A stretch of 23,814 nucleotides of DNA from a virus (IMGVR_UViG_2563366942_000005:1-23814), one strand, 5' to 3'. Numbered from the stretch's first letter, positions 1 to 23,814 are shown. The notes: a model not told the origin generated them from the sequence alone. Translations and numbers: made by a program.

Positions 1-1269
1 ATGAAGCTCACAGCCAGACAGGTCGAGACCGCAAAGCCAAAAGAAAAAACCTACAAAATGGCCGACGGCGGCGGTTTGTATCTCGAGATTTCGCCTAAGG
101 GGTCAAAATACTGGCGCATGAAATACAGACGCCCCTCAGACAAAAAAGAGGATCGCCTCGCTTTTGGTGTTTGGCCTACTGTGACGCTTGCTCAGGCAAG
201 AGCAAAGCGCGATGAAGCTAAAAAACTGCTAGTGCAGGGCATTGACCCAAAAGCCGAACAGAAAGAAGCTCAGGCCGAGAATTCGGGGGCATATACATTC
301 GAAACCATTGCTCGTGAATGGCACGCCAGTAACAAACGCTGGAGTGAAGACCATCGCTCGCGCGTTCTTCGCTATCTTGAGCTTTATATCTTCCCTCACA
401 TTGGTTCGTCCGACATTCGTCAGCTCAAGACTAGCCACCTGTTAGCCCCGATTAAAAAAGTTGATGCAAGTGGTAAGCATGACGTCGCGCAGCGACTTCA
501 GCAGCGTGTCACGGCTATCATGCGTTATGCAGTACAGAACGATTACATCGACTCAAATCCAGCCAGTGATATGGCTGGTGCTCTATCGACAACCAAAGCG
601 CGACATTACCCAGCTTTACCCTCTAGCCGGTTCCCTGAGTTTCTTGCACGTCTTGCTGCATATCGTGGCCGTGTAATGACACGGATCGCGGTTGAGCTTT
701 CCTTACTAACTTTTGTGCGTTCCAGTGAGTTGCGTTTTGCGCGTTGGGATGAATTCGACTTCGATAAATCTCTATGGCGCATACCTGCAAAACGAAAAGA
801 AATTAAGGGAGTGCGTTATTCGTATCGTGGTATGAAGATGAAAGAGGAGCATATCGTTCCGCTGAGTCGTCAGGCGATGAATTTGTTAGACCAGTTAAAG
901 CAGATTAGTGGTGATAAAGAGATGCTTTTCCCGGGGGATCATGACGCCACTAAGGTTATGAGTGAAAACACAGTGAATAGCGCATTGCGTGCGATGGGAT
1001 ATGACACAAAAACCGAAGTCTGCGGGCATGGGTTTAGGACGATGGCACGTGGTGCGTTGGGTGAGTCAGGATTATGGAGTGATGATGCTATAGAACGCCA
1101 ACTGAGCCATTCAGAGCGCAATAATGTTCGTGCAGCTTATATTCATACTTCTGAACATCTAGATGAGCGGCGTCTTATGGTTCAATGGTGGGCGGATTAT
1201 TTAGATATAAGTAAGCATTCTCAAGTCACTCCATATGAGTTTGCAAATATGCTTAAAGTTAAAAAGTAA
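1..1269 (+). CDS. int: P4-family tyrosine integrase (site-specific recombinase)
   Basis: 422-aa ORF with the typical P4-type integrase N-terminus (MKLTARQVETAKPK...DGGGLYLEISPKGSKYWRMKYR) and a C-terminal catalytic region (HGFRTMARGAL ... YIHTSEH). It is the first gene of the element and is oriented away from the presumed upstream tRNA. Confidence 0.9.
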   Translation: MKLTARQVETAKPKEKTYKMADGGGLYLEISPKGSKYWRMKYRRPSDKKEDRLAFGVWPTVTLAQARAKRDEAKKLLVQGIDPKAEQKEAQAENSGAYTFETIAREWHASNKRWSEDHRSRVLRYLELYIFPHIGSSDIRQLKTSHLLAPIKKVDASGKHDVAQRLQQRVTAIMRYAVQNDYIDSNPASDMAGALSTTKARHYPALPSSRFPEFLARLAAYRGRVMTRIAVELSLLTFVRSSELRFARWDEFDFDKSLWRIPAKRKEIKGVRYSYRGMKMKEEHIVPLSRQAMNLLDQLKQISGDKEMLFPGDHDATKVMSENTVNSALRAMGYDTKTEVCGHGFRTMARGALGESGLWSDDAIERQLSHSERNNVRAAYIHTSEHLDERRLMVQWWADYLDISKHSQVTPYEFANMLKVKK

Positions 1270-5821: not shown

Positions 5822-6210
5822 TGATGCCCGCTCTGCAAAAACTCCCTTTTTCTGGCTTGCCTTTTTCCGGCATTTGCGGATATAGTTTTTCCGCTGCCGC
5901 AAAATCGGCAGCCGGGCGTAGGAACCCGTGTAACTCGAAGGCGACATATGACGCGCCATGCGTCTTTTTTTGTGTCGCAATCAACGCCACAGAGCGCCAG
6001 ATTATGGTGTGGCGTGTGGTTTGCCGTGCAGGTATGATCCTGTTCGCAATCGCATGTTATGCCACTGAGTCAATGGTAGCTCAGGCGGGGCAGCCTCCGG
6101 GCTGGCCGGTATTCTTCGAGGCCGGTATTCCTACCCCCGTCTGGGCTATCGCCATCGAGCGTAGGAACTCCGGCGATAGCAGTTATTTGCTACTCGAAGG
6201 AGACTGCCTT

Positions 6211-9980: not shown

Positions 9981-9998
9981 CATCCCTGAATCCCCCGA

Positions 9999-10275
9999 AG
10001 GTGAACAATCCACTGTTCACCCTTCACCGTATATTCACCAGTTATCACACTGAAATTAAAAGAGAAAAACGAAAGGTGAACAGTGTGAACAATCAAATCA
10101 AAAAAAACTTTTTTCTTCCTGAGTGATTTCAGTGCGGAGGATTAATCACCGGTATGAGTCACACCGGCAGAATGCCGGAGGTGAAGAATCGAATGTTCAC
10201 CCTTCACCCATTATTCACCACCTATCACTCTGAAATAAAAGGAGAAAACAGAAAGGTGAACAGTGTGAACAGTTC
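9999..10275. repeat. Tandem direct repeat (two imperfect units of about 100 bp, period about 180 bp), each carrying TGTTCACC/GGTGAACA iterons plus an A-tract/T-tract; crr-like cis replication region
   Basis: Unit 1 (about 9999-10100) and unit 2 (about 10179-10280) align along their length. Full octamers lie at 10000-10007, 10014-10021, 10075-10082, 10194-10201 and 10255-10262, with degenerate copies between. Each unit ends in an A8/T6-type tract. Confidence 0.7.
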
Positions 10276-10484
10276 TTTCGAAAAAAAATTTTTTATGTGG
10301 ATAAAAGATGCACTGGTTTGGATCCGAGCTACGGATCCAAACTTACTGATTAAAAATGATTTAACTTTCCGATTTATTGATGGGCTGAAAATAGATTGGT
10401 CAGAAAAACAGTGGGGGCACAAAAGGGGGCATATTTCATTGTTGTGTTTTATTATTTGTTTTTTATCATTAACTTATTTTGATG

Positions 10485-10506
10485 TTTGAGTCCGGCCTTC
10501 GCACCA
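10485..10506 (+). other. attR: partial direct repeat of a tRNA-Leu 3' end (integration-site core)
   Basis: TTTGAGTCCGGCCTTCGCACCA closely resembles the 3' end of E. coli leuX tRNA (TTCGAGTCCGGCCTTCGGCACCA, from memory), with no tRNA body upstream. The position just past alpha/crr is where attR is expected. Confidence 0.6.
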
Positions 10507-10895
10507 CATCGTATGCAAATCGAGTCGCTCAAGGGCGGCTTTTTTTGTGCCTGTGTTTTCACTACTTTGTTTGTATGTAACGCTGATAATCTAAGAACTT
10601 CGGAAGCCCCATTCCCATCAATGATGTTCATTCATCATCCTGAAAATTAAGTAGATATAAAACTTCATTGCCTTGGTCTAATGGCTCAGGAAATAGATTG
10701 CATTTAGCGAGTGGCATTCTTAATGTGCCATTGTTTAGCCATGAAACGATGCGTAAAATTGCTGATTTTATGTGTCAAAGGCCCGCAACCGGAGATGTCC
10801 TTACTTCAAGGATCAACCACTATTGGCGTATCCTTTTACTATCTTGATTCAATTCAGCAGGTTATCGTCAAAAGTACAGCGAAGAGAGAGAAAAG

Positions 10896-13787
10896 ATGAT
10901 TGGTACAACACCTTATCATGCGAAATATTTTGCGCATGAACTTTCCATTCTCCATTCAAACAATGGGGTGGACCGTCTGTCTCAATCGCTGTTTGATGCA
11001 AGCGTAGATCTAAATCCTCATCAAATTGAGGCGGCTCTTTTTGCTATTGAAAATCCGCTAAGCAAAGGTGTTGTGCTTGCCGATGAAGTTGGTTTAGGTA
11101 AAACCATTGAAGCGGGGTTAGTGCTTTGCCAGTTGTGGGCTGAAAGAAAACGTAAACTGTTGATCATTTGTCCTGCTTCACTGCGTCGCCAATGGGCGAG
11201 CGAGTTACAGGAAAAGTTCAATCTACCTTCTCAGGTGTTGGACGCGAAAACGTATAGCCAGCTTCAAAAAGAAGGGATCCATAATCCCTTAAATAATAAA
11301 TCGATCACTATCATGTCATACCACTATGCTGCTCGGTTAGAAGAAAAATTGGTGGCTGAAATGTGGGATCTGGTTGTTATCGACGAAGCCCATAAACTGC
11401 GTAATGCTCATCGAGAAAGTAACAAAATGGGGCAAGCGTTAAAGCGTGCGCTTGATGGGCGGAAAAAATTACTACTGACCGCAACGCCTTTACAGAATTC
11501 GTTAATGGAACTGTATGGCATGTCGACGCTTATAGATGAACATACCTTCGGCGAAGTTAAAGCGTTCAGAAAGCAATATATGCAGGCAGATAGCGATATT
11601 GCGGAGTTGAAGGGGCGATTGTCGCGTTTTATCAAACGAACTTTACGCAAGAATGTGCTGGAGTACATCAAGTATACAGAACGTAAAGCGATCACTATTC
11701 CTTTCTATCCGAGCGAACAGGAGCAGGATCTTTATGAACGCGTACAAAAATTGCTTGAACGTGAGGATAGCTATGCCTTACCAAAACGACACCGGCATCT
11801 GACGGGGCTTATTCTCAGAAAGCTACTTTCCTCAAGTACGAAAGCTGTATTGAATAACTTGCAGATCCTTAAGAGTCGTTTAGAAAGGTTAAAGCTGGAA
11901 GGTATCGTTGAAGATGATATGAACATCATCCAACAGATCATAATGGATGACGATCTTGAAGATGACATCGTGGAAGATGCCGAATCAGTGGCTTTAGATA
12001 CCGAGTGCAAAGTTGTCGATTCAGACGCGCTTCAGGCAGAAATCAATGAGCTGGAATCACTCATTGTCAAAGCAGAACAGATTGGCACTGATACCAAATC
12101 AAAAGAGTTGCTTTCTGGCCTGGAGCAAGGTTTTGCACAGCTTGCCGAAATGGGGGCTGCAAAAAAAGTCATCATCTTCACGGAGTCAATGCGAACTCAA
12201 CAGTATCTTGCACATTTTCTGGAAAACAATGGCTACCAGGGGAAAGTAGTAACCTTTAGTGGCACAAACAATACACCGCAGGCAAACAAGATCTACCAGC
12301 AATGGCGCGAGGAATATCAGGGATCTTCTCGTATTACCGGGTCGGCGCAAATTGATAAACGCTCGGCTTTGATCGACCACTTCAAAGATCATGCTGAAAT
12401 CATGATAGCTACAGAAGCTGCAGCTGAAGGGGTGAACCTGCAATTTTGTTCGCTACTGATCAATTACGATTTACCCTGGAACCCACAACGCATTGAACAG
12501 CGTATTGGACGTTGTCACCGATACGGGCAAAAATTTGATGTGGTTGTTATTAACTTCCTCAATCAGCGAAACCAGGCCGATCAACGCGTTCTTGAACTCT
12601 TAACTGAAAAGTTCAGCCTGTTTGATGGCGTGTTTGGCGCATCGGATAGTGTGCTTGGCAGCATAGAAAATGGTGTGGATTTTGAAAAAAGGATCCAGTC
12701 AATTTATGAGTCATGCCGTACCCCCGAGGAGATAGAGCTGGCTTTTGAAAGGTTGCAGAAAGAGCTGGAAGATGAAATCAATCTCAAGATGCAGAAGACG
12801 CAAGAACAGTTGCTTGAGCATTTTGATGAAGATATTCACGATATCCTTAAAATAAGGCTTGATGAAGCTCGGGAGCGTCTGGATAAAGTCGGTCGTTGGT
12901 TTTGGGCCGTGACCTGTCAGCAGCTCAAACAATATGCTGATTTTGATCATGAGCATCATCGTTTCACTTTACGTGAATCAGTAAATGAACTGCCTGTCGG
13001 GCAGTACCAGCTGTTGCGCAAAGATGGTAGGCAAAATAGTGCGTTACAAATGCAGGATCACCACAGTTTTGCATATCGGATCAATCATCCGCTGGGTGAG
13101 TACGTCATTGAGGGGGCTAAGGTCCAGGAGACGAAAACAGCTGAAGTCATCTTCGATTACAGTAACCACACAACGAAAGTCTCGGTGGCTGAGCAGCTGA
13201 AAGGGCAATCAGGGTGGTTAACACTAAATTTGCTTACTGTTGATGCGTTTAACAGGCAGCAATTTTTAGTCTTTACCGCAAAAACTGACAACGGACGTGT
13301 GGTAGATGGTGAAGCTTGTAAACGTCTGTTCAACTTGTCTGCAATAACCAACGAAAAGCTGGATAATTCGGCAAGTTCAGATGCATTACCTGATGACTTG
13401 ATCTTACTCAAGAACAGGCAAATTGACGCCAGACTTGCGGAAGTTCTGGAGCAGAACAATGTCCTTTTTGAAGCTGAAAGAGATAAGCTGGAAAAATGGG
13501 CTGAAGATATGATCTTTGCGGCGGAAGAAGCATTACGCGATACCAAAATGCAAATCAAGTCGTTAAAGCGAGAAGCCAGACTGGCGCAATCGATGGAAGA
13601 ACAAAAGCAAAACCAGGAAAAGCTGAAGCTACTGGAACGGCAGCAGAAACGCCAACGTATGGAAATTTTTGACATTGAAGATGAGATCGCTGACAAGCGG
13701 GATGAACTCATCAGTGCCCTTGAAGAGCGGATGAAGCAAAAAACGGATATCACCGAGCTTTTTTCCATCCGCTGGAAAGTTATTTAA
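10896..13787 (+). CDS. SNF2-family (SWI2/SNF2) helicase/ATPase with about 400-aa coiled-coil-rich C-terminal extension; DrmD-like
   Basis: 963 aa with helicase motifs I (LADEVGLGKT), II (VVIDEAHKLRN), III (LLTATPLQNS) and VI (QRIGRCHRYGQ). It is the first gene of an AT-rich three-gene operon, with AGAGAGAAAAG upstream of the ATG. Confidence 0.9.
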   Translation: MIGTTPYHAKYFAHELSILHSNNGVDRLSQSLFDASVDLNPHQIEAALFAIENPLSKGVVLADEVGLGKTIEAGLVLCQLWAERKRKLLIICPASLRRQWASELQEKFNLPSQVLDAKTYSQLQKEGIHNPLNNKSITIMSYHYAARLEEKLVAEMWDLVVIDEAHKLRNAHRESNKMGQALKRALDGRKKLLLTATPLQNSLMELYGMSTLIDEHTFGEVKAFRKQYMQADSDIAELKGRLSRFIKRTLRKNVLEYIKYTERKAITIPFYPSEQEQDLYERVQKLLEREDSYALPKRHRHLTGLILRKLLSSSTKAVLNNLQILKSRLERLKLEGIVEDDMNIIQQIIMDDDLEDDIVEDAESVALDTECKVVDSDALQAEINELESLIVKAEQIGTDTKSKELLSGLEQGFAQLAEMGAAKKVIIFTESMRTQQYLAHFLENNGYQGKVVTFSGTNNTPQANKIYQQWREEYQGSSRITGSAQIDKRSALIDHFKDHAEIMIATEAAAEGVNLQFCSLLINYDLPWNPQRIEQRIGRCHRYGQKFDVVVINFLNQRNQADQRVLELLTEKFSLFDGVFGASDSVLGSIENGVDFEKRIQSIYESCRTPEEIELAFERLQKELEDEINLKMQKTQEQLLEHFDEDIHDILKIRLDEARERLDKVGRWFWAVTCQQLKQYADFDHEHHRFTLRESVNELPVGQYQLLRKDGRQNSALQMQDHHSFAYRINHPLGEYVIEGAKVQETKTAEVIFDYSNHTTKVSVAEQLKGQSGWLTLNLLTVDAFNRQQFLVFTAKTDNGRVVDGEACKRLFNLSAITNEKLDNSASSDALPDDLILLKNRQIDARLAEVLEQNNVLFEAERDKLEKWAEDMIFAAEEALRDTKMQIKSLKREARLAQSMEEQKQNQEKLKLLERQQKRQRMEIFDIEDEIADKRDELISALEERMKQKTDITELFSIRWKVI

Positions 13788-13807
13788 TTGATTTGAAAGA
13801 GAAAATA

Positions 13808-16800
13808 ATGAGTAAGTACAACGAATTAGTTAAGAAGCTAAAAGAAATTTTTCAGATTGATCGACCAGAACTGGATTTCGGTATTTATCGTATTTTAAAT
13901 GCACGTGCTGATGAAATTAACGACTATCTGGATAATAAGCTGAAGGCCAAAATCCAGTCTGCGCTGGCGGATGCAGGAAATGCCAATAAATCAGAATTAG
14001 AACATCAGTTGCAACTGACAATAAAAGCGGCAACTGATGCGGGTGTGGACCCTGCTGATAGCCCGAAAGTACAGGAGCTTAAAAAGCAACTGGCGGCTAT
14101 GGCATCCGGAGCAAATGAGCATGAAAATGCAGTATTTTCCCATCTGCTGACTTTCTTTTCGCGTTATTATGACAACGGCGATTTTATCAGCAAACGCCGT
14201 TATAAAGGTAATACCTACGCCATCCCTTATTCTGGCGAAGAAGTGATGTTGCACTGGGCAAATAAGGACCAGTACTACATTAAAAGCGGTGAAAACTTTG
14301 CTAATTATTCATTTAAATTAGATGATGGTCGTAAAGTTAGCTTTAAATTGCTCGCAGCGGACACAGCAAAAGATAACCGTAAAGATAATGAATTAGATCG
14401 CTGCTTTGTACTTATTGAGCCGCATGTTCGTACCAAAATTGATGAAGAAGGCGATGAGTACGAACAAGAATATAAGCCAGTAGAAGTGGTGAAAACTTCA
14501 TCTGTGGTTGACGGTAAACTCGTTGAAACAGAAGAGTTAGTTATTCACTTCGAATATAAGGCCATGAAAAAGGGCACTAAGCAGGATGCTTTAGTGCAGT
14601 CCGCTATTTCAACAATTCTGGCTGATAAAACAGTTCAACAGCATTGGGTTGATCTTGCTAAACGTGCGCCAACAGAAAAAAATCCGTCACGTACAGAGTT
14701 GGAGCGTCATCTTACAACTTATACCCAGCGTAATACAGCAGACTACTTTATTCATAAAGATCTCGGTGGTTTTTTAACTAACGAACTGGATTTTTATATT
14801 AAAAATGAAGTAATGAATCTCGATAATGTGCAAAATGCAGAAGTGTTTGCCAATATTGAGAAACAATTGCGCATGATTCAATGTTTGCGTACTGTTGCGC
14901 TGGAACTCATTGCATTTTTGGCACAAATTGAGAATTTCCAGAAGAAACTTTGGACTAAGAAGAAGTTTGTTGTTTCAAGTAATTACTATATTACTATGGA
15001 CAAAATAAGTTCAGAGTTTTACAGTGAAATAATTAATAATGAAAAAATAGTCCAAGAATGGATTGAATTAGGCATCTTAGATGAGAAGCCATCTACCTCT
15101 GATGTGGAGTTGCTCAAGTTTGCAACAGTTAATTTATCTCATTTAAACGGAGATCTAAGGAAAAAAATATTAAATAGTATCAATGATATTGACGATAATG
15201 TTGATGGCGTTTTTATTAATGGTGATAATTATCAAGCGTTAAATCTTTTGAAGAAAAATATAATTCCGTAATTGATTGTGTCCATATAGATCCACCATAT
15301 AACACAGATACTAGTGGTTTTTTATATAAAAATAGCTTTAAGCATTCAAGTTGGCTGAGTATGATGGATAGCCGTTTGCTTTTTGTTAAAAATTTACTCA
15401 GTGAAAATGGTGTATTTTTTTGTCATATTGATGAAAATGAATATGAGCGACTTTATTTAATTAATAAACAGTTAGGTCTTATCGATGCAGGGACAATTAT
15501 TTGGGATAAACGCAATCCCATGAATGGTGGTAGTGGCATTGCGATTCAACATGAATATACTACTTGTTTTACAAAGAACATGATTTCTATTAATAAGAAA
15601 AATGAGAATGTATTAGAAATACTCGAATATGCAAAATTAATTAAGAATAAATATCCTGTAATTAACAGTGAAGCAAAGAAAAAATTTTATGATTGGGTAA
15701 CAAAGAATAAAAAACTTACTGGAGGTGAACAAGCTTACAAATATATCGATGAGAAAGGTCGAGTGTACCAGAGTGTCAGCCTCCGTGCCCCAGAGCCAAG
15801 GACTGACAAGAAATTCTATATACCATTAATTCATCCAGTTACCGGGAAACCATGCGCTATGCCACCAAATGGTTTTTCTCGTACCCCAGAAACATTAAAA
15901 GATATGATGGATAAGGGGGATATACTATTTGGTGTTGATGAAACAACGCAACCTAGACAGAAAGCATATTTATATGCTGACGCTAAAAAGCAAATAACAT
16001 CAATAATTCAGGATGCTAAAAAAGGAAAAACTCAAACAACTCATCTTGGAATTGATTTTCCTTATTGTCACTCAACTTCTTTATATAATTATTTAATTGG
16101 GAGTGCATCTCATAATAAAAATGAGATAATATTAGATTTTTTTGCTGGTTCAGGAACAAGTGGCCACTCAGTCATAGAGTTGAATCGTAAGGATGCGGGT
16201 TCAAGGAAATATATACTTGTTGAACAGGGGGAGTATGCACAAAATGTAACTTTAAGCAGGTTGAGAAAAGTTATATTCAGTAGCAATTGGAAAGATGGTA
16301 AAGCTATGGATTCAACGACAGGCTCATCTCATATACTTAAAGTTATGAAAATAGAAAGTTACGAAGATGTATTAAATAGCCTTCGATTTGAACAACAAAA
16401 AGAAATAAAAGATCTTTTTGATACAGTGAATGAATCAGTAGCAAATGAGTATTTAATAAAATATATGCTTGAAACAGAAAGCAAAGGTTCACTACTCAGT
16501 ACTGATAATTTCAAAAAACCATTTAACTACGAAATGGATATTGCGACGGATTCCGCCGGTGCCACTGAGCGTAAAAACATCGATTTAGTTGAAACTTTCA
16601 ACTATCTCATTGGTTTACATGTGAAATCCATCGAATCCAATATCGAACGTGGCTATGTGCGTGTTGAAGGAATGCTACCAACAGGCGAGCGTACCCTTAT
16701 TCTGTGGCGCGATTGCGACAAGATCGGTTATGAAGAATTGAATAAATATGCCAGCCGATTCGATTTATATGCAAAAGAAAACACGTTCGACGTTATCTAT

Positions 16801-16929
16801 ATCAATGGCGATCATAACTTACCTACCGCCTTTACCGTTGATGAAGAAGACGGCGAGATTGTTCGTAGCCTGAAAATCCGCCAGATCGAACCTGAATTCT
16901 TGAACCTGATGTTTGCGGAGGAGGTTTAA
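13808..16929 (+). pseudogene. Large beta-class N6-adenine DNA methyltransferase (about 1040 aa if fused), split by a frameshift near 15229-15271
   Basis: The N-terminal ORF (frame 2) ends at 15271 just after ...GDNYQALNLLKKN. Frame 1 is open from 15229 and reads SVIDCVHIDPPYN (motif IV, DPPY) and then DFFAGSGTSGHSVIELN (motif I, FxGxG). The two halves are one methyltransferase with the frame shifted inside an A-rich stretch (GAAGAAAAATATAAT). Start ATG taken at 13808 (MSKYNEL...). Confidence 0.8.
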
Positions 16930-17291
16930 GAATGGCTAAAAAACCAACCACCGGTAAAGCTGTTAAAAAAGAGACAAACAGCAAACTGAGCTTTCATAAG
17001 CAACTGGTTTTGAACCGCTTTATGTTCCATTTTTTTAAAGATGGCACATTGCAAGGTTTAAAGAATCGGTTAGGTGAAGATCGCTTTGAAGGCATCCATG
17101 AAGATGGCCAAAGCTTGTTCTTCCATGAGCTGAGTAACTATTTATTCGAGGTCGATCTTATCGATCTCGATGAACTGCGTCGTTACGATCTCAATATCGT
17201 ACAGCACTGGCAGCAGATAACTGAGCACCGTAATCGGGTGATGCTGCCAACTTACTGATTTAGTGTATGATGGTGTTTTTGAGGTGCTCCA

Positions 17292-17567
17292 GTGGCTTCT
17301 GTTTCTATCAGCTGTCCCTCCTGTTCAGCTACTGACGGGGTGGTGCGTAACGGCAAAAGCACCGCCGGACATCAGCGCTATCTCTGCTCTCACTGCCGTA
17401 AAACATGGCAACTGCAGTTCACTTACACTGCTTCTCAACCCGGTACGCACCAGAAAATCATTGATATGGCCATGAATGGCGTTGGATGCCGGGCAACTGC
17501 CCGCATTATGGGCGTTGGCCTCAACACGATTTTACGTCACTTAAAAAACTCAGGCCGCAGTCGGTAA
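17292..17567 (+). CDS. insA: IS1 InsA (transposition inhibitor / N-terminal part of InsAB' transposase)
   Basis: 91-aa protein [42 protein letters not shown]..., matching IS1 InsA. Confidence 0.95.
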
Positions 17568-17989
17568 CCTCGCGCATACAGCCGGGCAGTGACGTCATCG
17601 TCTGCGCGGAAATGGACGAACAGTGGGGCTATGTCGGGGCTAAATCGCGCCAGCGCTGGCTGTTTTACGCGTATGACAGTCTCCGGAAGACGGTTGTTGC
17701 GCACGTATTCGGTGAACGCACTATGGCGACGCTGGGGCGTCTTATGAGCCTGCTGTCACCCTTTGACGTGGTGATATGGATGACGGATGGCTGGCCGCTG
17801 TATGAATCCCGCCTGAAGGGAAAGCTGCACGTAATCAGCAAGCGATATACGCAGCGAATTGAGCGGCATAACCTGAATCTGAGGCAGCACCTGGCACGGC
17901 TGGGACGGAAGTCGCTGTCGTTCTCAAAATCGGTGGAGCTGCATGACAAAGTCATCGGGCATTATCTGAACATAAAACACTATCAATAA
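17486..17989 (+). CDS. insB: IS1 InsB reading frame (expressed as InsAB' transposase by -1 ribosomal frameshift)
   Basis: 167-aa ORF matching IS1 InsB (...[50 protein letters not shown]...). It overlaps insA in the -1 frame. Confidence 0.9.
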
Positions 17990-20900
17990 GTTGGAGTCAT
18001 TACCCGTAATCGCAAAGAAGACACCGTGCTGAATATGAAATATTTTCAGTACTTGTCGCTTCTGTTTACCGAGATCTACCTGGACTGGTACTTCAATCGT
18101 AAACAGCAATTACTCGATGGGCTAAATAACGAGCTGGCAGCATACAATGCTGAAAATGATAAAACAGCAAAAGACCGGGCTAATCAGTTCAAATCATACA
18201 TTCTAGATGACTTGAATAAACTTGCATACTGGAACGCTACCGGTTCGGGTAAAACACTGCTATTGCATGTCAATATTTTGCAATATTTACATTATTTCCA
18301 GAACGGTAATACCCACCATTACCCGGATAAAATCATCCTGCTTACGCCGGATGAACGCCTGTCGAAGCAACATTTAGATGAGCTGGAAAACTCAGGATTT
18401 ACCCAATACCAGTTATTCGATAAGAGTAAATCTGCGCCCTTCAAAGGCACGATTGAAGTTATTGATATCAATAAACTTGCCGATGAAATGGGTGACAAAA
18501 CTGTTGCCGTTGAGGCATTTGAAGGCAACAATCTGGTTCTGATTGATGAAGGGCATAAAGGCACCGGAAGTGCTGCTGGTGCCTGGATGCGCCGTCGTGA
18601 CAAATTAACACGTGACGGATTTGCGTTTGAATATTCAGCAACTTTTGGCCAGGCAGTAGCCGGTGGCAATAATGTTGAGGCAGTTGAAACAGAAATTCAG
18701 AAGAAAAAAGCAAAGCTGCTTTTTGAAACAACGGCCTTAGGTAAACTGAACGAAGAAGAGTTAGCGCAAATAGCATTAACCAGCGAAGAAAAACGAGATG
18801 CGCGTATTCAGGCGACGCGAGAGGTCTATGGAAAATCGATTCTGTTCGATTACTCCTATAAATTCTTCTATGAGGATGGTTATGGTAAAGAATCACTGAT
18901 TCTTAACCTTAATCCTGAAGAGGATAAAAAAGATGAGCGTCGGTATGAGTATTTTACCGCGTGTTTGCTCAGCTTTTATCAGCAACAATATTTATTCAAT
19001 AAGAATAAAGAAAAATTAAGTGAATTTAATATCGAAAAACCGCTGTGGGTTTTTGTCGGTAATACGGTAAGTGGTGAAGATTCAGACATTCACGCAGTAT
19101 TGCGTTTTTTAGCATGGTTTTTAAACCACGAAACGCAGGCAAAAGCGTGGATTAACGATCTCATTAAAAATAAAGCGCGAATCCTCGATACCAAAGAGCG
19201 TAACATTTTTGAAAATCGCTTTACTGCACTAATGAACGCTCCGGAAGATATCTACGCAGATATTCTTTCTCGCTTGTTTAACACCACTCACTCTGGTCAG
19301 CGACTGCGAGTTCTGAATTTAATAGGCAGTAAAGGTGAACTGGCATTACAGGTTGGTGAGGCCGAACCGTTTGGCCTTATCAATATTGGTGATGCACCGT
19401 CTCTTTACAAAATGTGTGAAGAGGATACGACATTTGATTATCAGAGAGATGATTTTGCAAAGTCACTCTTTCATACGTTAAATGACAAAGACTCGCGACT
19501 ACATATTTTGATCGGCTCGCGAAAATTTACTGAAGGCTGGAGCAGTTGGCGCGTCTCAACGATGGGATTGCTCAATATGGGCCGTGGAGAAGGTTCACAG
19601 ATCATTCAGTTATTTGGTCGTGGCGTACGCCTTAAAGGTCGCAATTATTCTTTGAAACGCAGTACACCCGGTGAGCGTCCGAAAGGGTTGCATCTGGAAA
19701 AATTAGAGACACTGAATGTATTCGGTGTACGTGCCGATTACATGGCAACCTTTAAACAATACCTGGAAGATGAAGGGATTACGCCAAGTGACGAGATCCT
19801 TGAGCTGAATTTTGAAACTCGGCCAAATATGCCAGCAACCAGGCTTAAAACACTTAAGCTTAAAGATGGTTATAAAGATAATCAAAGACTCGGCTTTAAA
19901 CGTGTCTATTTTCCCGAATTGTATGAAGTTCCTGCTGATTTTCAGGGGAAAATTAAGCAGCCGCATATTAAGCTGGACTTATACCCGAAACTTGAGTCGA
20001 TTGATACCAGCAGAAAAGGGGACAATACTCCGGTTAACGTGCGCAATGAAGCGAAGTTAGATTATAAAATCATTAGTGCATTTGATTTTGATCGGCTTTA
20101 TCTCGCCATTCAGAATTATAAACTACAACGCGGCTGGTCAAATTTACGTGTGGATAAACAACGTTTGATCGACTTTTGTACCGGTAAGACAAAGATCGGA
20201 AATAGTTGGTATACCCTTTTGATTCCAGCTTCAGAGCTTGAGATTAAGCAATATGCAGATATTGCTAAGCAGGAAGATATTATGCTTCGTCTGCTGACTG
20301 ATTATACTGATCGCTTTTACAACACCTTGAAAAATGCTTATGAAGGTCAGTTTTATGAAGTCACGCAGGTGAAAGAAGATGATCCTGGTATGATCAAAAT
20401 GTACCATTTCGAGATCGAAGAAACTGATGATGGGTTGGCTTATGCCAGTCGGCTGGAACAATTACAACAATTGGTCATCGACGGCGAAATCGGTAAAGCA
20501 AAATCCTGGAGTGCATCCGGGATGGTTGCTATTACCTTTGATAAACATCTCTATTACCCGCTTCTTTCGATTGAAAAAAATGCCAATATACCGCTAAAAA
20601 TGCGACCGGCAGCACTTGGTGCGCCAAGCGAGATTACTTTTGTTCAGGATCTTCAGTCTTTTGTTGATTCGACAAAAGGGCAGAAAATTATTGGTGATAA
20701 AAGTTTATATCTGCTAAGAAATGCGGATTCTAAAAATAAAGGCCTGGGCTTTGCTACTGCGGGTAATTTTTATCCGGATTTCTTATTGTGGTTAGTCGAT
20801 GATAAAAGTGGTAAACAATGGCTAAGTCTTATTGATCCAAAAGGCATTCGCAATCTTAATCTTGATGATCCGAAGTTCGGATTATATAAAGAAATTAAGA

Positions 20901-21100
20901 ATCTTGAACATAAATTATCGGATGATAACTTATCATTAAGTGCATTTATTGTTTCTGAAACTTGTTATGTTGACTTAGTAAACGTACCTGACTCAAAAGA
21001 AAATCTGGAAGCCAGAAATGTGCTTTTTATTGAGGATACAGGCCCCGTTTATCTGGAGAAGTTATTCAGTAAGATGGTTAGCGAGTAAATAATTATGATT

Positions 21101-21131
21101 CTGTTCCATATCTCTGTGAGATATGGAACAG
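21101..21131. terminator. Strong hairpin between convergent genes (likely bidirectional terminator)
   Basis: CTGTTCCATATCTC-TGTG-AGATATGGAACAG forms a 13-14 bp perfect stem. It lies 13 bp after the operon's last stop codon and immediately after the stop of the minus-strand 100-aa ORF. Confidence 0.6.
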
Positions 21132-21134
21132 ATA

Positions 21135-21437
21135 TTATCGCCAATGTGCAGGAATAATTAGGTCAAACGATTTTGCTGCATATTCAAGCATTTTTATTAT
21201 TTCCCTGTGTCGTTCCTGGTCGAACGGCTGTCCATTTTTTCTACACTCTATAATCCCTTGTAACTCTTTTAGGTTAAACATATCAAGAAGATAAAAGTTT
21301 TTCCATGTTGGTTGCCCGAAGAGGTTATAGACTGTTTCTGTAGCATCTCTCTCACTTGCTAATCTTTTCTCTCCGTCTATTTTTTCAAAAAATATTTCAG
21401 CTGTTTCTTTATCATCATAAGTATTTAACAATTCCAT
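21135..21437 (-). CDS. Hypothetical small protein (100 aa), AT-rich orphan
   Basis: ORF of 100 aa (MELLNTYDDKETAEIFFEKIDGEKR...) on the strand opposite to the operon. It is AT-rich and has no recognisable motif. Confidence 0.45.
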   Translation of the reverse strand: MELLNTYDDKETAEIFFEKIDGEKRLASERDATETVYNLFGQPTWKNFYLLDMFNLKELQGIIECRKNGQPFDQERHREIIKMLEYAAKSFDLIIPAHWR

Positions 21438-21749
21438 TATGATTTTCCTGATTAATGAATTGATATCACGATAATTATATCATGAATAGATGTAAATTTA
21501 CTATGTATATAAATTAGTGTACAATTCAACATGCCAATTGTTTTTTAATTTGTAATTTCGATTGGTTAATAACTGGATTCTCTTATAATGAATATATATT
21601 TACTCTGACTAGAATATTTGTAAACGTATTTTATATTGAGATTTTAAAATTGATTTGTGGCTATGTACTCATAAATACTACTTTCGGTGTCAGAAAATAC
21701 TTTATCTATTACATTTAAAATCCTAGGTGAAAGATATATAATGGCTACC

Positions 21750-22622
21750 TCACCCCCTAAAAACCTCTTTTCGATGCCACTCCACAAACCCCTCAAAAGG
21801 GTAATTTTTACGCACCTGTGGCAACGCAATAGTTTTCCCGTCAAAATCCCAGAATAATCTCTCAACGATCCCTCCGCCGTTTACCGCATCCGAGACCAGT
21901 ACCCGCATATTTTCATCCAGGCCAATCGATCCTTTATCAAAGGCTTTATGGTGTATTGCGCAAAGCGCCAGACCATTGGGGATTTCACAAGGGCCGCCGT
22001 GCTGTTTCCATTTTATATGCGCCGCTTCCAGCGCGACGGTGGTGTCGTCGTGGCGCATATTAAAGCCACATATCGCGCACTGGTAGTTATAAGCGCGTAA
22101 TACATTTTTGCGAAATAACGGGTCGCGCTGTTTACGGATTTGCTGGAGATCAAAACCCAGCTCGTCAGCAATTTCTTCCTGAATACTCTCGGTGAAGTGC
22201 GCTTCGAGTATCTGTTGCGCCAGAGTATTGATGAGTTTTTTATTGCCGGTTACCAGGGCGTAGTGCTGTTCATCGAAACCGCCTGCAACGTGGTATTCGT
22301 TCAGTTCCTTCACTGGCGGTTGTCGGCTGCTCCCTGCTGTTGAGCAAAGCTCGGCATTGTGTAATTGCCAGAATCCGTCGCCTTGTAATCGCCAAAACGG
22401 CATATCAGGTCGGTACTGTGAACGCTGTGGCCCAAAACGTTCCAGTAAACTGTGCAGAGGTTCGTAGATTTCCGATCCATAATCGAAAAGGCGTGGATGT
22501 CCATTCAGGTATCCCGCTAATACGTATAGCAATAACAATGGTTTATGCGGTGCGCGCTGTTCACCCTTATGCCAGATTTTTATATTGGCAATTGCCTGCT
22601 GTAGCGATTTACTGGAAGCCAT
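21750..22622 (-). CDS. HNH-motif endonuclease with N-terminal uncharacterised domain (candidate modification-dependent/Type IV-like restriction nuclease); start taken at the Shine-Dalgarno-supported ATG (MASSKSL...)
   Basis: The C-terminal region carries an HNH signature (YQCAICGF...ALEAAHIKWKQHGGP...NGLALCAIHHKAFDKG). The six-frame ORF extends to a TTG at 22679, but AGGGA precedes the ATG at 22622. Confidence 0.75.
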   Translation of the reverse strand: MASSKSLQQAIANIKIWHKGEQRAPHKPLLLLYVLAGYLNGHPRLFDYGSEIYEPLHSLLERFGPQRSQYRPDMPFWRLQGDGFWQLHNAELCSTAGSSRQPPVKELNEYHVAGGFDEQHYALVTGNKKLINTLAQQILEAHFTESIQEEIADELGFDLQQIRKQRDPLFRKNVLRAYNYQCAICGFNMRHDDTTVALEAAHIKWKQHGGPCEIPNGLALCAIHHKAFDKGSIGLDENMRVLVSDAVNGGGIVERLFWDFDGKTIALPQVRKNYPFEGFVEWHRKEVFRG

Positions 22623-22833
22623 TGATATCCCTGGCAGTGAAATAATTGCGATCATGCTCGCAAATTTTCTGCTGTTCAAGCCTGCAAGTGAAGATATATT
22701 ACCTTGATCTCATTTGTTTTTTTGCTGCCTGTGTGCCCTAATTGCCATGCGATGTTGCACCGACGCAAACCACCGTTTATGCCGGAGGAGTTAAAAGCGC
22801 TGATGGATGCGAATAAATCAAATTAATGAACGC

Positions 22834-23814
22834 TCACCTTTCGCGCCAAAACTGCAAAATTGCTTCTACAAACCTGTCAGAAATAATCCCTCGACGGGCT
22901 GCCGCGCTGAAATGACTGCTTCGCAGTGCCGTCGTCCAGTTCTCCGGTGACCGGTACGCTGAACCGTAATATCCCGTGCTTAAATCGTCCGGGTCTTCAT
23001 CAGGCGCGTTCGTCAGTCCTCTTTCACCTTGTTGCTGGAAGTCGACGAAAATAATATTGGCTAAAACATTATTTTGATAATTGCCATAAATAGCTTCATA
23101 CGCATGAGGGAAATTTTCTTTCCAGTACCAGGTGGTATCGCCGCAAAACCAGGGCGCATCAGTAATATTATTAAGCTGAGAATGGTATTGTTTTAGATCC
23201 CTACGAAAGGCTTCAACCATATGATTAAAGTGTTGAGGGTGTGACGCGTAGTCACTGGTCATTAAGTCAAATTCGCCTTGCATCCAGCATACGCCGAGGA
23301 ATTTGTTCTGCGGATTTTTTGTCAGTGCGGCTCGCGTTCTGCTGACTAAATCCTGGTATAGCGGAGTATCCGTTCCCCAACGACAAGCATCATGGCTGGC
23401 TCCGTGCCGTTCTGAATATGTCCCTTCGCTGCCCGCGGTAAAAGCCGATCCGCCACGGCAACACGGAACGATGAGAACCCCTGCGTTATCAGGAATAAAG
23501 GGCAGTAATTTCCGTGCAATATGCAGTGCCTGGCCAACGGTGCCGTACTGTGTTTGATGATTCGTTGCCAGAGGATGGTGATAACCCTGCATATCCTGAA
23601 CATCGTGTGGGCAGTGAGTCAGTGGAATAATGTCGTTAAAGTGACATGACGGGCCTCCGGGATGCGTATGCGCAAATCTCGCTAATTGTTTAATTCTGGG
23701 ATGAGGCGCATCTTCCCTGTCCGGTAATGGCAGTCCTTCGCCATACGCCATGGCATTAGACTGACCAGCAACGGTAAGAACATAGTAATAATCAGGCGAT
23801 ATTATTGCGTTCAT
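22834..23814 (-). CDS. nanS: Sialate O-acetylesterase NanS/YjhS-like protein (core-genome flank)
   Basis: 326-aa ORF (MNAIISPDYYYVLTVAGQSNAMAYGEGLPLPDRE...) recognised as E. coli YjhS/NanS-like from memory. It has SGNH-type esterase character (GQSN motif near the N-terminus). The start codon is at the window edge. Confidence 0.75.
   Translation of the reverse strand: MNAIISPDYYYVLTVAGQSNAMAYGEGLPLPDREDAPHPRIKQLARFAHTHPGGPSCHFNDIIPLTHCPHDVQDMQGYHHPLATNHQTQYGTVGQALHIARKLLPFIPDNAGVLIVPCCRGGSAFTAGSEGTYSERHGASHDACRWGTDTPLYQDLVSRTRAALTKNPQNKFLGVCWMQGEFDLMTSDYASHPQHFNHMVEAFRRDLKQYHSQLNNITDAPWFCGDTTWYWKENFPHAYEAIYGNYQNNVLANIIFVDFQQQGERGLTNAPDEDPDDLSTGYYGSAYRSPENWTTALRSSHFSAAARRGIISDRFVEAILQFWRER

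Follow-up and report, generated by a model that had tools for sequence, protein, structure and literature searches.

Results and discussion

A P4-type satellite beside an older, inactivated cassette at leuX

The stretch IMGVR_UViG_2563366942_000005:1-23814, 23,814 nucleotides (nt) in length and hereafter called the window, is a segment of the Escherichia coli chromosome that covers the leuX-to-nanS interval, starting with the ATG of a P4-type integrase gene and ending with the start codon of nanS. A P4-type satellite, from position 1 to ~10506, is integrated into the 3' end of the tRNA-Leu gene leuX. It is proposed, with a probability of about 0.85, that this satellite sits beside an earlier, separately acquired and now dead cassette of four genes, and that the cassette occupies an exchangeable slot of the chromosome. 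A P4-like Int would have carried the satellite into the 3' end of leuX, leaving an intact tRNA gene at the left junction and the attachment site attR at 10484-10506; the former downstream flank of leuX, with its terminator, would now lie to the right of attR and be followed by the pre-existing cassette. An earlier reading of positions 10485-21500, made by a model from the sequence alone (the original prediction), had described the region as tandem accretion of islands at a tRNA-Leu-type site, in which the attR of a satellite is followed by a second AT-rich defence island. Coordinates of the features are collected in Table 1.

The closest complete genome is that of strain F163, which is 98.3% identical over the whole stretch except for one insertion sequence (IS). 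There, 164 bp separate the end of the tRNA-Leu gene (leuX) from the homologous int gene downstream. The tRNA gene itself lies outside the window, in which ARAGORN finds zero tRNAs.

The attachment site and its short core

The right end of the satellite was predicted from a 22-bp sequence nearly identical to the 3' end of a tRNA-Leu gene, situated just past the satellite replication repeats (the crr region of Table 1) and having no tRNA body, and each of these statements holds. The sequence at attR reads GTTTGAGTCCGGCCTTCGCACCA and the 3' end of leuX, taken from F163, reads GGTTCGAGTCCGGCCTTCGGCACCA; the two differ by one substitution and one missing G. Positions 10488-10506 agree with the P4 attP core and the leuX 3' end at 19 of 20 positions, one G being absent, and the preceding GTTT (10484-10487) is P4 arm sequence that resembles the tRNA by coincidence. 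The layout is GTTT-GAGTCCGGCCTTCG-CACCA, and the T that differs from the tRNA (TTCGAG) lies outside the core and derives from the P4 arm. The T deviation is not decay of a tRNA copy, and the missing G is the sole real deviation. Phage P4 (X51522) and positions 10100-10506 are 99.5% identical, with crr, both attP arm repeats and the annotated 20-bp core GAGTCCGGCCTTCGGCACCA included, and this identity ends exactly at CACCA.

When the 3'-terminal 30 nt of leuX are aligned locally, with gaps, along the entire window, attR scores 36 and the next best place 20, and the maxima in 30 shuffles range from 16 to 22. An ungapped search of the window for the leuX 3' end with up to three mismatches returns no match, because attR differs by a deletion. 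It is true that the 22-mer departs from leuX at two positions and that no tRNA body accompanies it, as would be expected of a chance match or of a decayed pseudo-tRNA unrelated to the satellite. That origin is nevertheless extremely improbable and was rejected, given the score of 36 against a shuffle maximum of 22, the coincidence with the annotated P4 attP core, and the position of the 22-mer at a breakpoint common to many genomes: the majority of those matching the window align only from 10482/10484 to its end, at 99.9% identity.

The missing G is not a peculiarity of this strain. Genome counts given here and below refer to complete E. coli genomes, 5,426 in all. The P4 right arm together with the core is present in 244 genomes, 240 of which fall in the band of 95-99% identity; all listed hits in this band span 67 rather than 68 bases, which corresponds to the shorter core, and only 3 of the 244 match the query with GG at 99% or more. 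In most of 1,522 genomes with CP4-like islands, which are unrelated, the short core forms the end of the island as well. It adjoins three different right flanks, and the unoccupied counterparts of the same flanks have an intact tRNA. The core that is shorter by one G thus predominates (~98% of P4-like attR sites) and is therefore not decay that befell this strain. We favour an explanation in which the short core belongs to the attP of the elements and strand exchange takes place 3' of the missing G, so that the tRNA would never be rebuilt from element DNA; the exchange may be confined to roughly the final 6 nt of the tRNA, and the element may never replace the tRNA 3' end. An alternative is a recurrent loss of the G that locks the elements in place.

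Table 1. Features of the window, with strand and the basis of each assignment.
Feature	Position	Strand	Basis
P4-type tyrosine integrase gene, left end of satellite	1..1269	+	95% identity to P4 Int; PHROG integrase
crr region, two 120-nt direct repeats 180 nt apart (9995-10114, 10175-10294)	9995..10294	+	repeat search; P4 crr annotation
two 12-nt attP arm repeats, GTGGGGGCACAA and AAGGGGGCATAT, on the satellite side of attR	10411..10434	+	aligned to annotated arm repeats of X51522
attR	10484..10506	+	alignment to leuX 3' end; P4 attP core; breakpoint in many genomes
leuX terminator flank, 47 bp	10507..10553	+	directly after intact leuX in unoccupied genomes; terminator scan; fold
cassette leader, left edge of variable segment at ~10553/10554	10554..10895	+	divergence from other leuX islands directly after GTGCCTG
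SNF2-family helicase gene, DrmD-like, 963 amino acids (aa), intact	10896..13787	+	Pfam SNF2-rel_dom, Helicase_C; PADLOC DrmD 1e-199
type III-like Mod DNA methyltransferase gene, frameshifted	13808..16929	+	Pfam N6_N4_Mtase; PADLOC MTase_III full length; intact 1040-aa orthologues in F163 and E24377A
Res-like superfamily 2 (SF2) helicase gene, 1126 aa when intact, split by IS1	16932..21088	+	PADLOC REase_III full length; Pfam ResIII, DEAD; IS-free orthologues
IS1, 768 bp, in res	17237..18004	+	90.5% identity to K-12 IS1F
gene of 100-aa helical protein, fourth cassette gene	21135..21437	-	59-64% identity copies downstream of Res on the opposite strand in 8 loci of other genera
AT-rich spacer, right edge of cassette at ~21746	21438..21746		thousands of cassette-less genomes match the window from 21745-21747 rightwards
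phosphorothioate (PT)-DNA-binding HNH (type IV) restriction endonuclease gene, conserved right anchor, outside the cassette	21750..22622	-	NCBIfam PT-DNA_restrict 1e-131; Pfam HNH_2; sequence match to ScoMcrA sulphur-binding domain
remnant of second HNH endonuclease gene	22722..22826	+	partial in F163, E24377A and XH990; intact (651 bp) in EA2
nanS (sialate O-acetylesterase)	22834..23814	-	98.3% identity to K-12 nanS

The cassette predates the satellite

A synthetic empty site, made by joining leuX to window positions 10507-10800, is found in one piece in other genomes: 16 match it at 100% identity, 11 at 99.5% and others at 87-97%; about 36 genomes span the synthetic junction in full, about 20 of these at 87-99.5%. 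Strains XH990, A3 and EA2 carry the cassette without the satellite, in the order ahr, leuX, 390 bp, SNF2, Mod, Res, the 100-aa gene, the HNH endonuclease gene, the second HNH gene or its remnant, and nanS, with no integrase. The left side of the same junction is occupied in E24377A by a mosaic CP4-like island exceeding 50 kb, whose right end carries Ag43 and a YeeU/CbtA pair; EC4 and JJ1887 have the same right end of a CP4-like island (YeeU/CbtA) beside the same core. Since leuX is joined directly to the AT-rich block in other genomes, the block is older at the site than the satellite and is not part of the satellite's cargo. The cassette is independent of the satellite and was present at the site beforehand.

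A satellite that reaches ~21500 and includes the AT-rich block as cargo would also explain why the two lie side by side, and P4-like satellites do carry defence genes (PMC9122126). This explanation was rejected and retains hardly any probability: P4 identity goes no further than the att core, the block is found with no satellite next to it and also beside unrelated islands, and the cargo slot of the satellite is elsewhere, between int and psu (1292-2697). In addition, an element of ~21 kb would exceed the ~12 kb capacity of a P4-sized capsid (PMC9122126). The original prediction had left it undecided whether the second island was at the site before the satellite or came by a separate event, and had named comparison with genomes carrying only one of the two islands as the way to check it; the junction of leuX and block at 100% identity in other genomes, and the three strains with the cassette alone, bear out the prior presence of the block. 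The findings named there as fatal did not materialize, in that the 22-mer matches both leuX and the P4 core and the block is not part of the satellite in related genomes.

Borders of the cassette and an exchangeable slot

To the left of the cassette, the 47 bp that follow CACCA are common to 1,330 genomes, and the cassette itself is present in 152 of the 5,426 (2.8%). This flank contains a rho-independent hairpin (10522-10541) followed by a T-run, with a fold of -14.9 kcal/mol, and the satellite has moved this terminator 10.7 kb away from leuX. Of the leuX terminator there are at least three alleles (A, A' and B), which differ in stem sequence and yet all fold well, a pattern that looks like compensatory change.

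The right border lies 3 nt past the stop codon of the HNH endonuclease gene, and at least part of the HNH anchor stretch (21089-22833) is present in 4,927 of the 5,426 genomes; K-12 retains only a 248-bp remnant of the anchor gene. At least one unrelated cassette, of McrBC type, shares this right junction, and O157 breaks inside the HNH gene instead. The same slot holds McrBC with HsdM in some genomes and HNH, AAA, restriction and PLD-DUF499-DUF1156 genes in others. The slot between the leuX terminator and the HNH anchor is home to many alternative cargoes, of which the cassette is one. These borders correct the end of the block, which had been put at ~21500 with core-like sequence thereafter: the cassette extends to ~21746, and the HNH endonuclease gene and the HNH remnant (21750-22826) come before nanS.

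Genes of the cassette and family assignment

The cassette (~10554-21746) has a G+C content of 0.39 with IS1 excluded, against 0.56 in the satellite backbone and 0.485 in nanS. The SNF2 gene starts at 10896, 390 bp past the att core, in agreement with the AT-rich SNF2/methyltransferase/helicase block that had been expected to begin ~400 bp on. The SNF2 protein reaches 666.7 bits against the NCBIfam model DISARM_DrmD_b, which is under the cutoff of 950. The Mod protein is of the PF01555 kind and matches EcoP15I Mod (4zcf) at 1.7e-39; tblastn matches to it are interrupted at ~aa 590-770 in several homologues, a gap that may be read as a variable target-recognition region. For the Res-like helicase there is no sequence match among the structures in the PDB, and no nuclease domain and no DUF1998 were identified in it. 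The 100-aa protein has no family match in Pfam, PADLOC and NCBIfam scans, and its single-sequence fold (predicted local distance difference test score 72) has no Foldseek match in the PDB at E < 2; it probably serves the cassette as a fourth component or as a regulator.

Two known systems with a similar SNF2 protein were considered and rejected. DISARM does not fit, as there is no drmA-type helicase, no drmB (DUF1998) and no drmC (PLD), neither DUF1998 nor PLD domains being detected in the cassette proteins, and as the DrmD score is below the cutoff. ARMADA does not fit either, since Mod is a PF01555 protein like EcoP15I rather than PglX-like and the helicase shows no DUF1998 signature in the Pfam domain scan. 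The K-12 gene yjhR was tried as a remnant of the Res-like helicase and rejected, there being no DNA similarity. On its domain content the module would best be called a type III-like restriction-modification (R-M) module with an SNF2 partner. Literature searches found no specific description of a system of DrmD with type III Mod/Res. A distinct defence system, made of a type III R-M core and a DISARM/ARMADA-style SNF2 partner, found in Gamma- and Zetaproteobacteria and beyond and with several copies directly downstream of tRNA genes, is a tentative idea that we consider less probable than not. The module may act in a type III-like way, methylating self DNA and using its helicase to drive the restriction of unmodified DNA.

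Inactivation in this strain

The cassette is dead in this strain, with res split and mod frameshifted. The IS1 copy in res is flanked by a target duplication of 9 bp, CCGTAATCG, seen as the overlap of the flanking alignments to IS-free orthologues, and this IS1 insertion occurs in none of the best-matching complete genomes listed. A base-by-base comparison with E24377A shows that mod has lost one A from an A-run at ~15253, leading to a stop at 15271. We suppose that res was lost first, which would have made the loss of mod harmless. The original prediction mentions neither the IS1 nor the frameshift. In strain EA2 mod is also broken into two open reading frames (ORFs), at a different position. 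Loss of the Mod methyltransferase may be recurrent.

Origin of the cassette

Homologous cassettes were found in 31 loci of other taxa. The SNF2 protein has counterparts of 81-87% aa identity in an Enterobacteriaceae metagenome-assembled genome (MAG), Psychrobacter, Morganella, Enterovibrio and Shewanella, and more distant relatives of the cassette occur in Vibrio, Kangiella, Legionella, Zetaproteobacteria, Nitrospinaceae and Planctomycetota. Because of its low G+C content, its patchy distribution and its close homologues in distant genera, the cassette is regarded as horizontally acquired foreign DNA. In Enterovibrio, Morganella and Shewanella an ORF of ~300 aa, absent from the E. coli version, abuts or overlaps the start of SNF2. 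Our guess is that it encodes a WYL/BrxR-type regulator; a remnant of a WYL-like regulator was sought in the window, and none was found.

How the cassette first came to E. coli could be through an older island that was later stripped or through recombination across the conserved anchors. In the former case, the accretion would be serial: the cassette would be what remains of an older island integrated in leuX, its integrase and right att site having been deleted, and the satellite would then have entered the regenerated tRNA and pushed the remnant rightwards. An intB-type integrase or DUF4102 remnant does follow the 47-bp flank in K-12, 13KWH46, STEC1590 and O157 F8092B, and two other loci (L020 and L035) have P4-Int-like fragments directly upstream of SNF2. 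In Thiorhodococcus mannitoliphagus the homologous cassette, with a TIR-domain gene, is located within a classical tRNA island of 22 kb; tRNA-Thr, next to an integrase, marks one end of the island, and a perfect 46-bp repeat of the 3' part of the tRNA marks the other.

The window and the carrier genomes speak otherwise. No integrase is annotated in the cassette segment in any of six inspected carrier genomes, and tblastx and blastn detect no intB-type integrase remnants in the non-coding flanks (10500-10900, 21080-21760 and 22670-22840). A second degenerate att repeat had been suspected near 21100-22830; a Smith-Waterman search of both strands of the whole window finds no second tRNA-like repeat above chance, and a short-word blast for repeats shared by the left and right flanks yields at best 17/18 nt (E = 0.67). 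This direct repeat, TTTTTTTG(C)TGCCTGTGT, lies at 10540-10556, at the end of the leuX terminator, and at 22717-22734, upstream of the HNH endonuclease gene, and is probably due to chance. Serial accretion also accords poorly with a right junction 3 nt past the HNH stop codon that is common to an unrelated McrBC-type cassette, and with the break inside the gene in O157. In Kangiella and in a Pseudomonadales MAG, moreover, the cassette follows a tRNA with no integrase between, as in E. coli. Tandem accretion as originally predicted thus stands for the satellite; the cassette shows neither integrase nor remnant nor att repeat, and for it we hold serial accretion to be possible but rather doubtful.

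Exchange of cassettes, in which the slot is refilled by homologous or illegitimate recombination in the conserved flanks without site-specific integration of the cassette, has somewhat better prospects, not far short of an even chance. The left (10553) and right (~21746) anchors are kept in genomes with unrelated cargo. Cassette alleles at the same position are 87-100% identical, and the 87% suggests import from related species. Identity of 87% is more divergent than is typical of E. coli core sequence. At the E. coli defence hotspot #37, no mobile element is detectable in 68% of cases (Hochhauser et al. 2023, PMC10121019). Less easily reconciled with exchange are the extent of the universal left anchor, which is the tRNA and 47 bp only, and junctions that are not fully uniform, O157 breaking inside the HNH gene.

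Several points weigh against the reading of a satellite in leuX beside an earlier, now dead cassette in an exchangeable slot. The 47-bp terminator precedes an intB-type integrase, or what is left of one, in several further types of island, and it could be island-borne rather than ancestral chromosome. A bare site, with leuX within ~1.2 kb of the HNH anchor, occurs in none of the 5,426 genomes, and the cassette is therefore not demonstrable as an insertion relative to an empty ancestor. The left junction lies outside the window, the adjacency of leuX being drawn from F163 (98.3% identical) and from the known specificity of P4 Int. The mod frameshift, finally, amounts to one base in a homopolymer and might stem from a sequencing error.

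Satellite genes

The satellite has the P4 gene set: int, psu, delta, sid, a vis-like gene, the immunity region with the C4 antisense RNA, and the alpha primase-helicase gene. Rfam matches at 5880-6156 correspond to the satellite immunity RNAs (C4 antisense RNA, the c4-a1b1 target and isrK); these are the sole matches in the window, and Rfam has none within 10485-21500. Two AT-rich genes (313 aa and 155 aa; G+C content 0.33) are located at 1292-2697 on the minus strand, between int and psu. The smaller protein (155 aa) is weakly RexB-like (PADLOC 6.6e-6), which suggests that the two may form a RexAB-like abortive-infection pair. The int-psu interval is the satellite's own defence slot according to Rousset et al. 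(PMC9122126).

Comparison with known systems

Both the insertion of satellites in leuX and the clustering of defence genes there are already known, and the arrangement described here is of an ordinary kind. Hotspot #37 of Hochhauser et al. (2023) is occupied in 97.3% of genomes, by 31 system types and sometimes by P4 satellites (PMC10121019), and it is anchored by leuX (EcoSal review, PMC12707154). The window agrees with it in chromosomal position, in variable defence cargo, in the P4-type satellite that is sometimes present and in the frequent lack of mobility genes; matched by leuX position and cargo, it differs in nothing essential and is one instance with a particular cargo. P4-like satellites beside defence islands have been noted before, and such turnover has been proposed to build islands (Rousset et al., PMC9122126).

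Compared with the attR of a P4 prophage at leuX, the window has the same target tRNA and closely similar crr, arms and core (99.5%) and Int (95%). It differs in the core, which is TTCGCACCA here and TTCGGCACCA in P4 (one G fewer in the window), and in the int-psu slot, which holds the RexAB-like pair here and the gop/beta/cII region in P4. The cassette is like the type III R-M system EcoP15I in Mod homology, in a variable central segment, in the position of mod before a large SF2 helicase gene and in full-length matches to PADLOC models, whereas its Mod and Res, at 1040 and 1126 aa, are far longer and have conserved SNF2 and 100-aa partners. With DISARM class 1 and ARMADA it shares a DrmD/BrxHII-like SNF2 protein beside an adenine methyltransferase and a large helicase, and ARMADA II occupies the leuX hotspot in other E. 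coli strains. However, the cassette has no DrmA/YprA-type DUF1998 helicase, DrmB or DrmC, and its Mod is of the PF01555 type and not PglX-like, whereas ARMADA is defined by a YprA-like helicase and a PglX-like methyltransferase (bioRxiv 10.1101/2025.09.15.676423).

The tandem tRNA islands, such as KpLE2 and CP4-like islands at leuX, resemble the window in having a tRNA-integrated element beside older foreign DNA and a displaced att copy at the border; they differ in that the older segment of the window lacks both an integrase and an att repeat of its own. To the leuX hotspot the window adds one well-delimited example, in which the exact borders of the satellite, of the displaced terminator and of the exchangeable slot are given, and in which a reading of the sequence alone had placed attR correctly and told the two adjacent foreign segments apart. 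The conserved anchors of the slot, the near-universal core that is shorter by one G, and the uncharacterised SNF2/type III-like cassette are reusable results.

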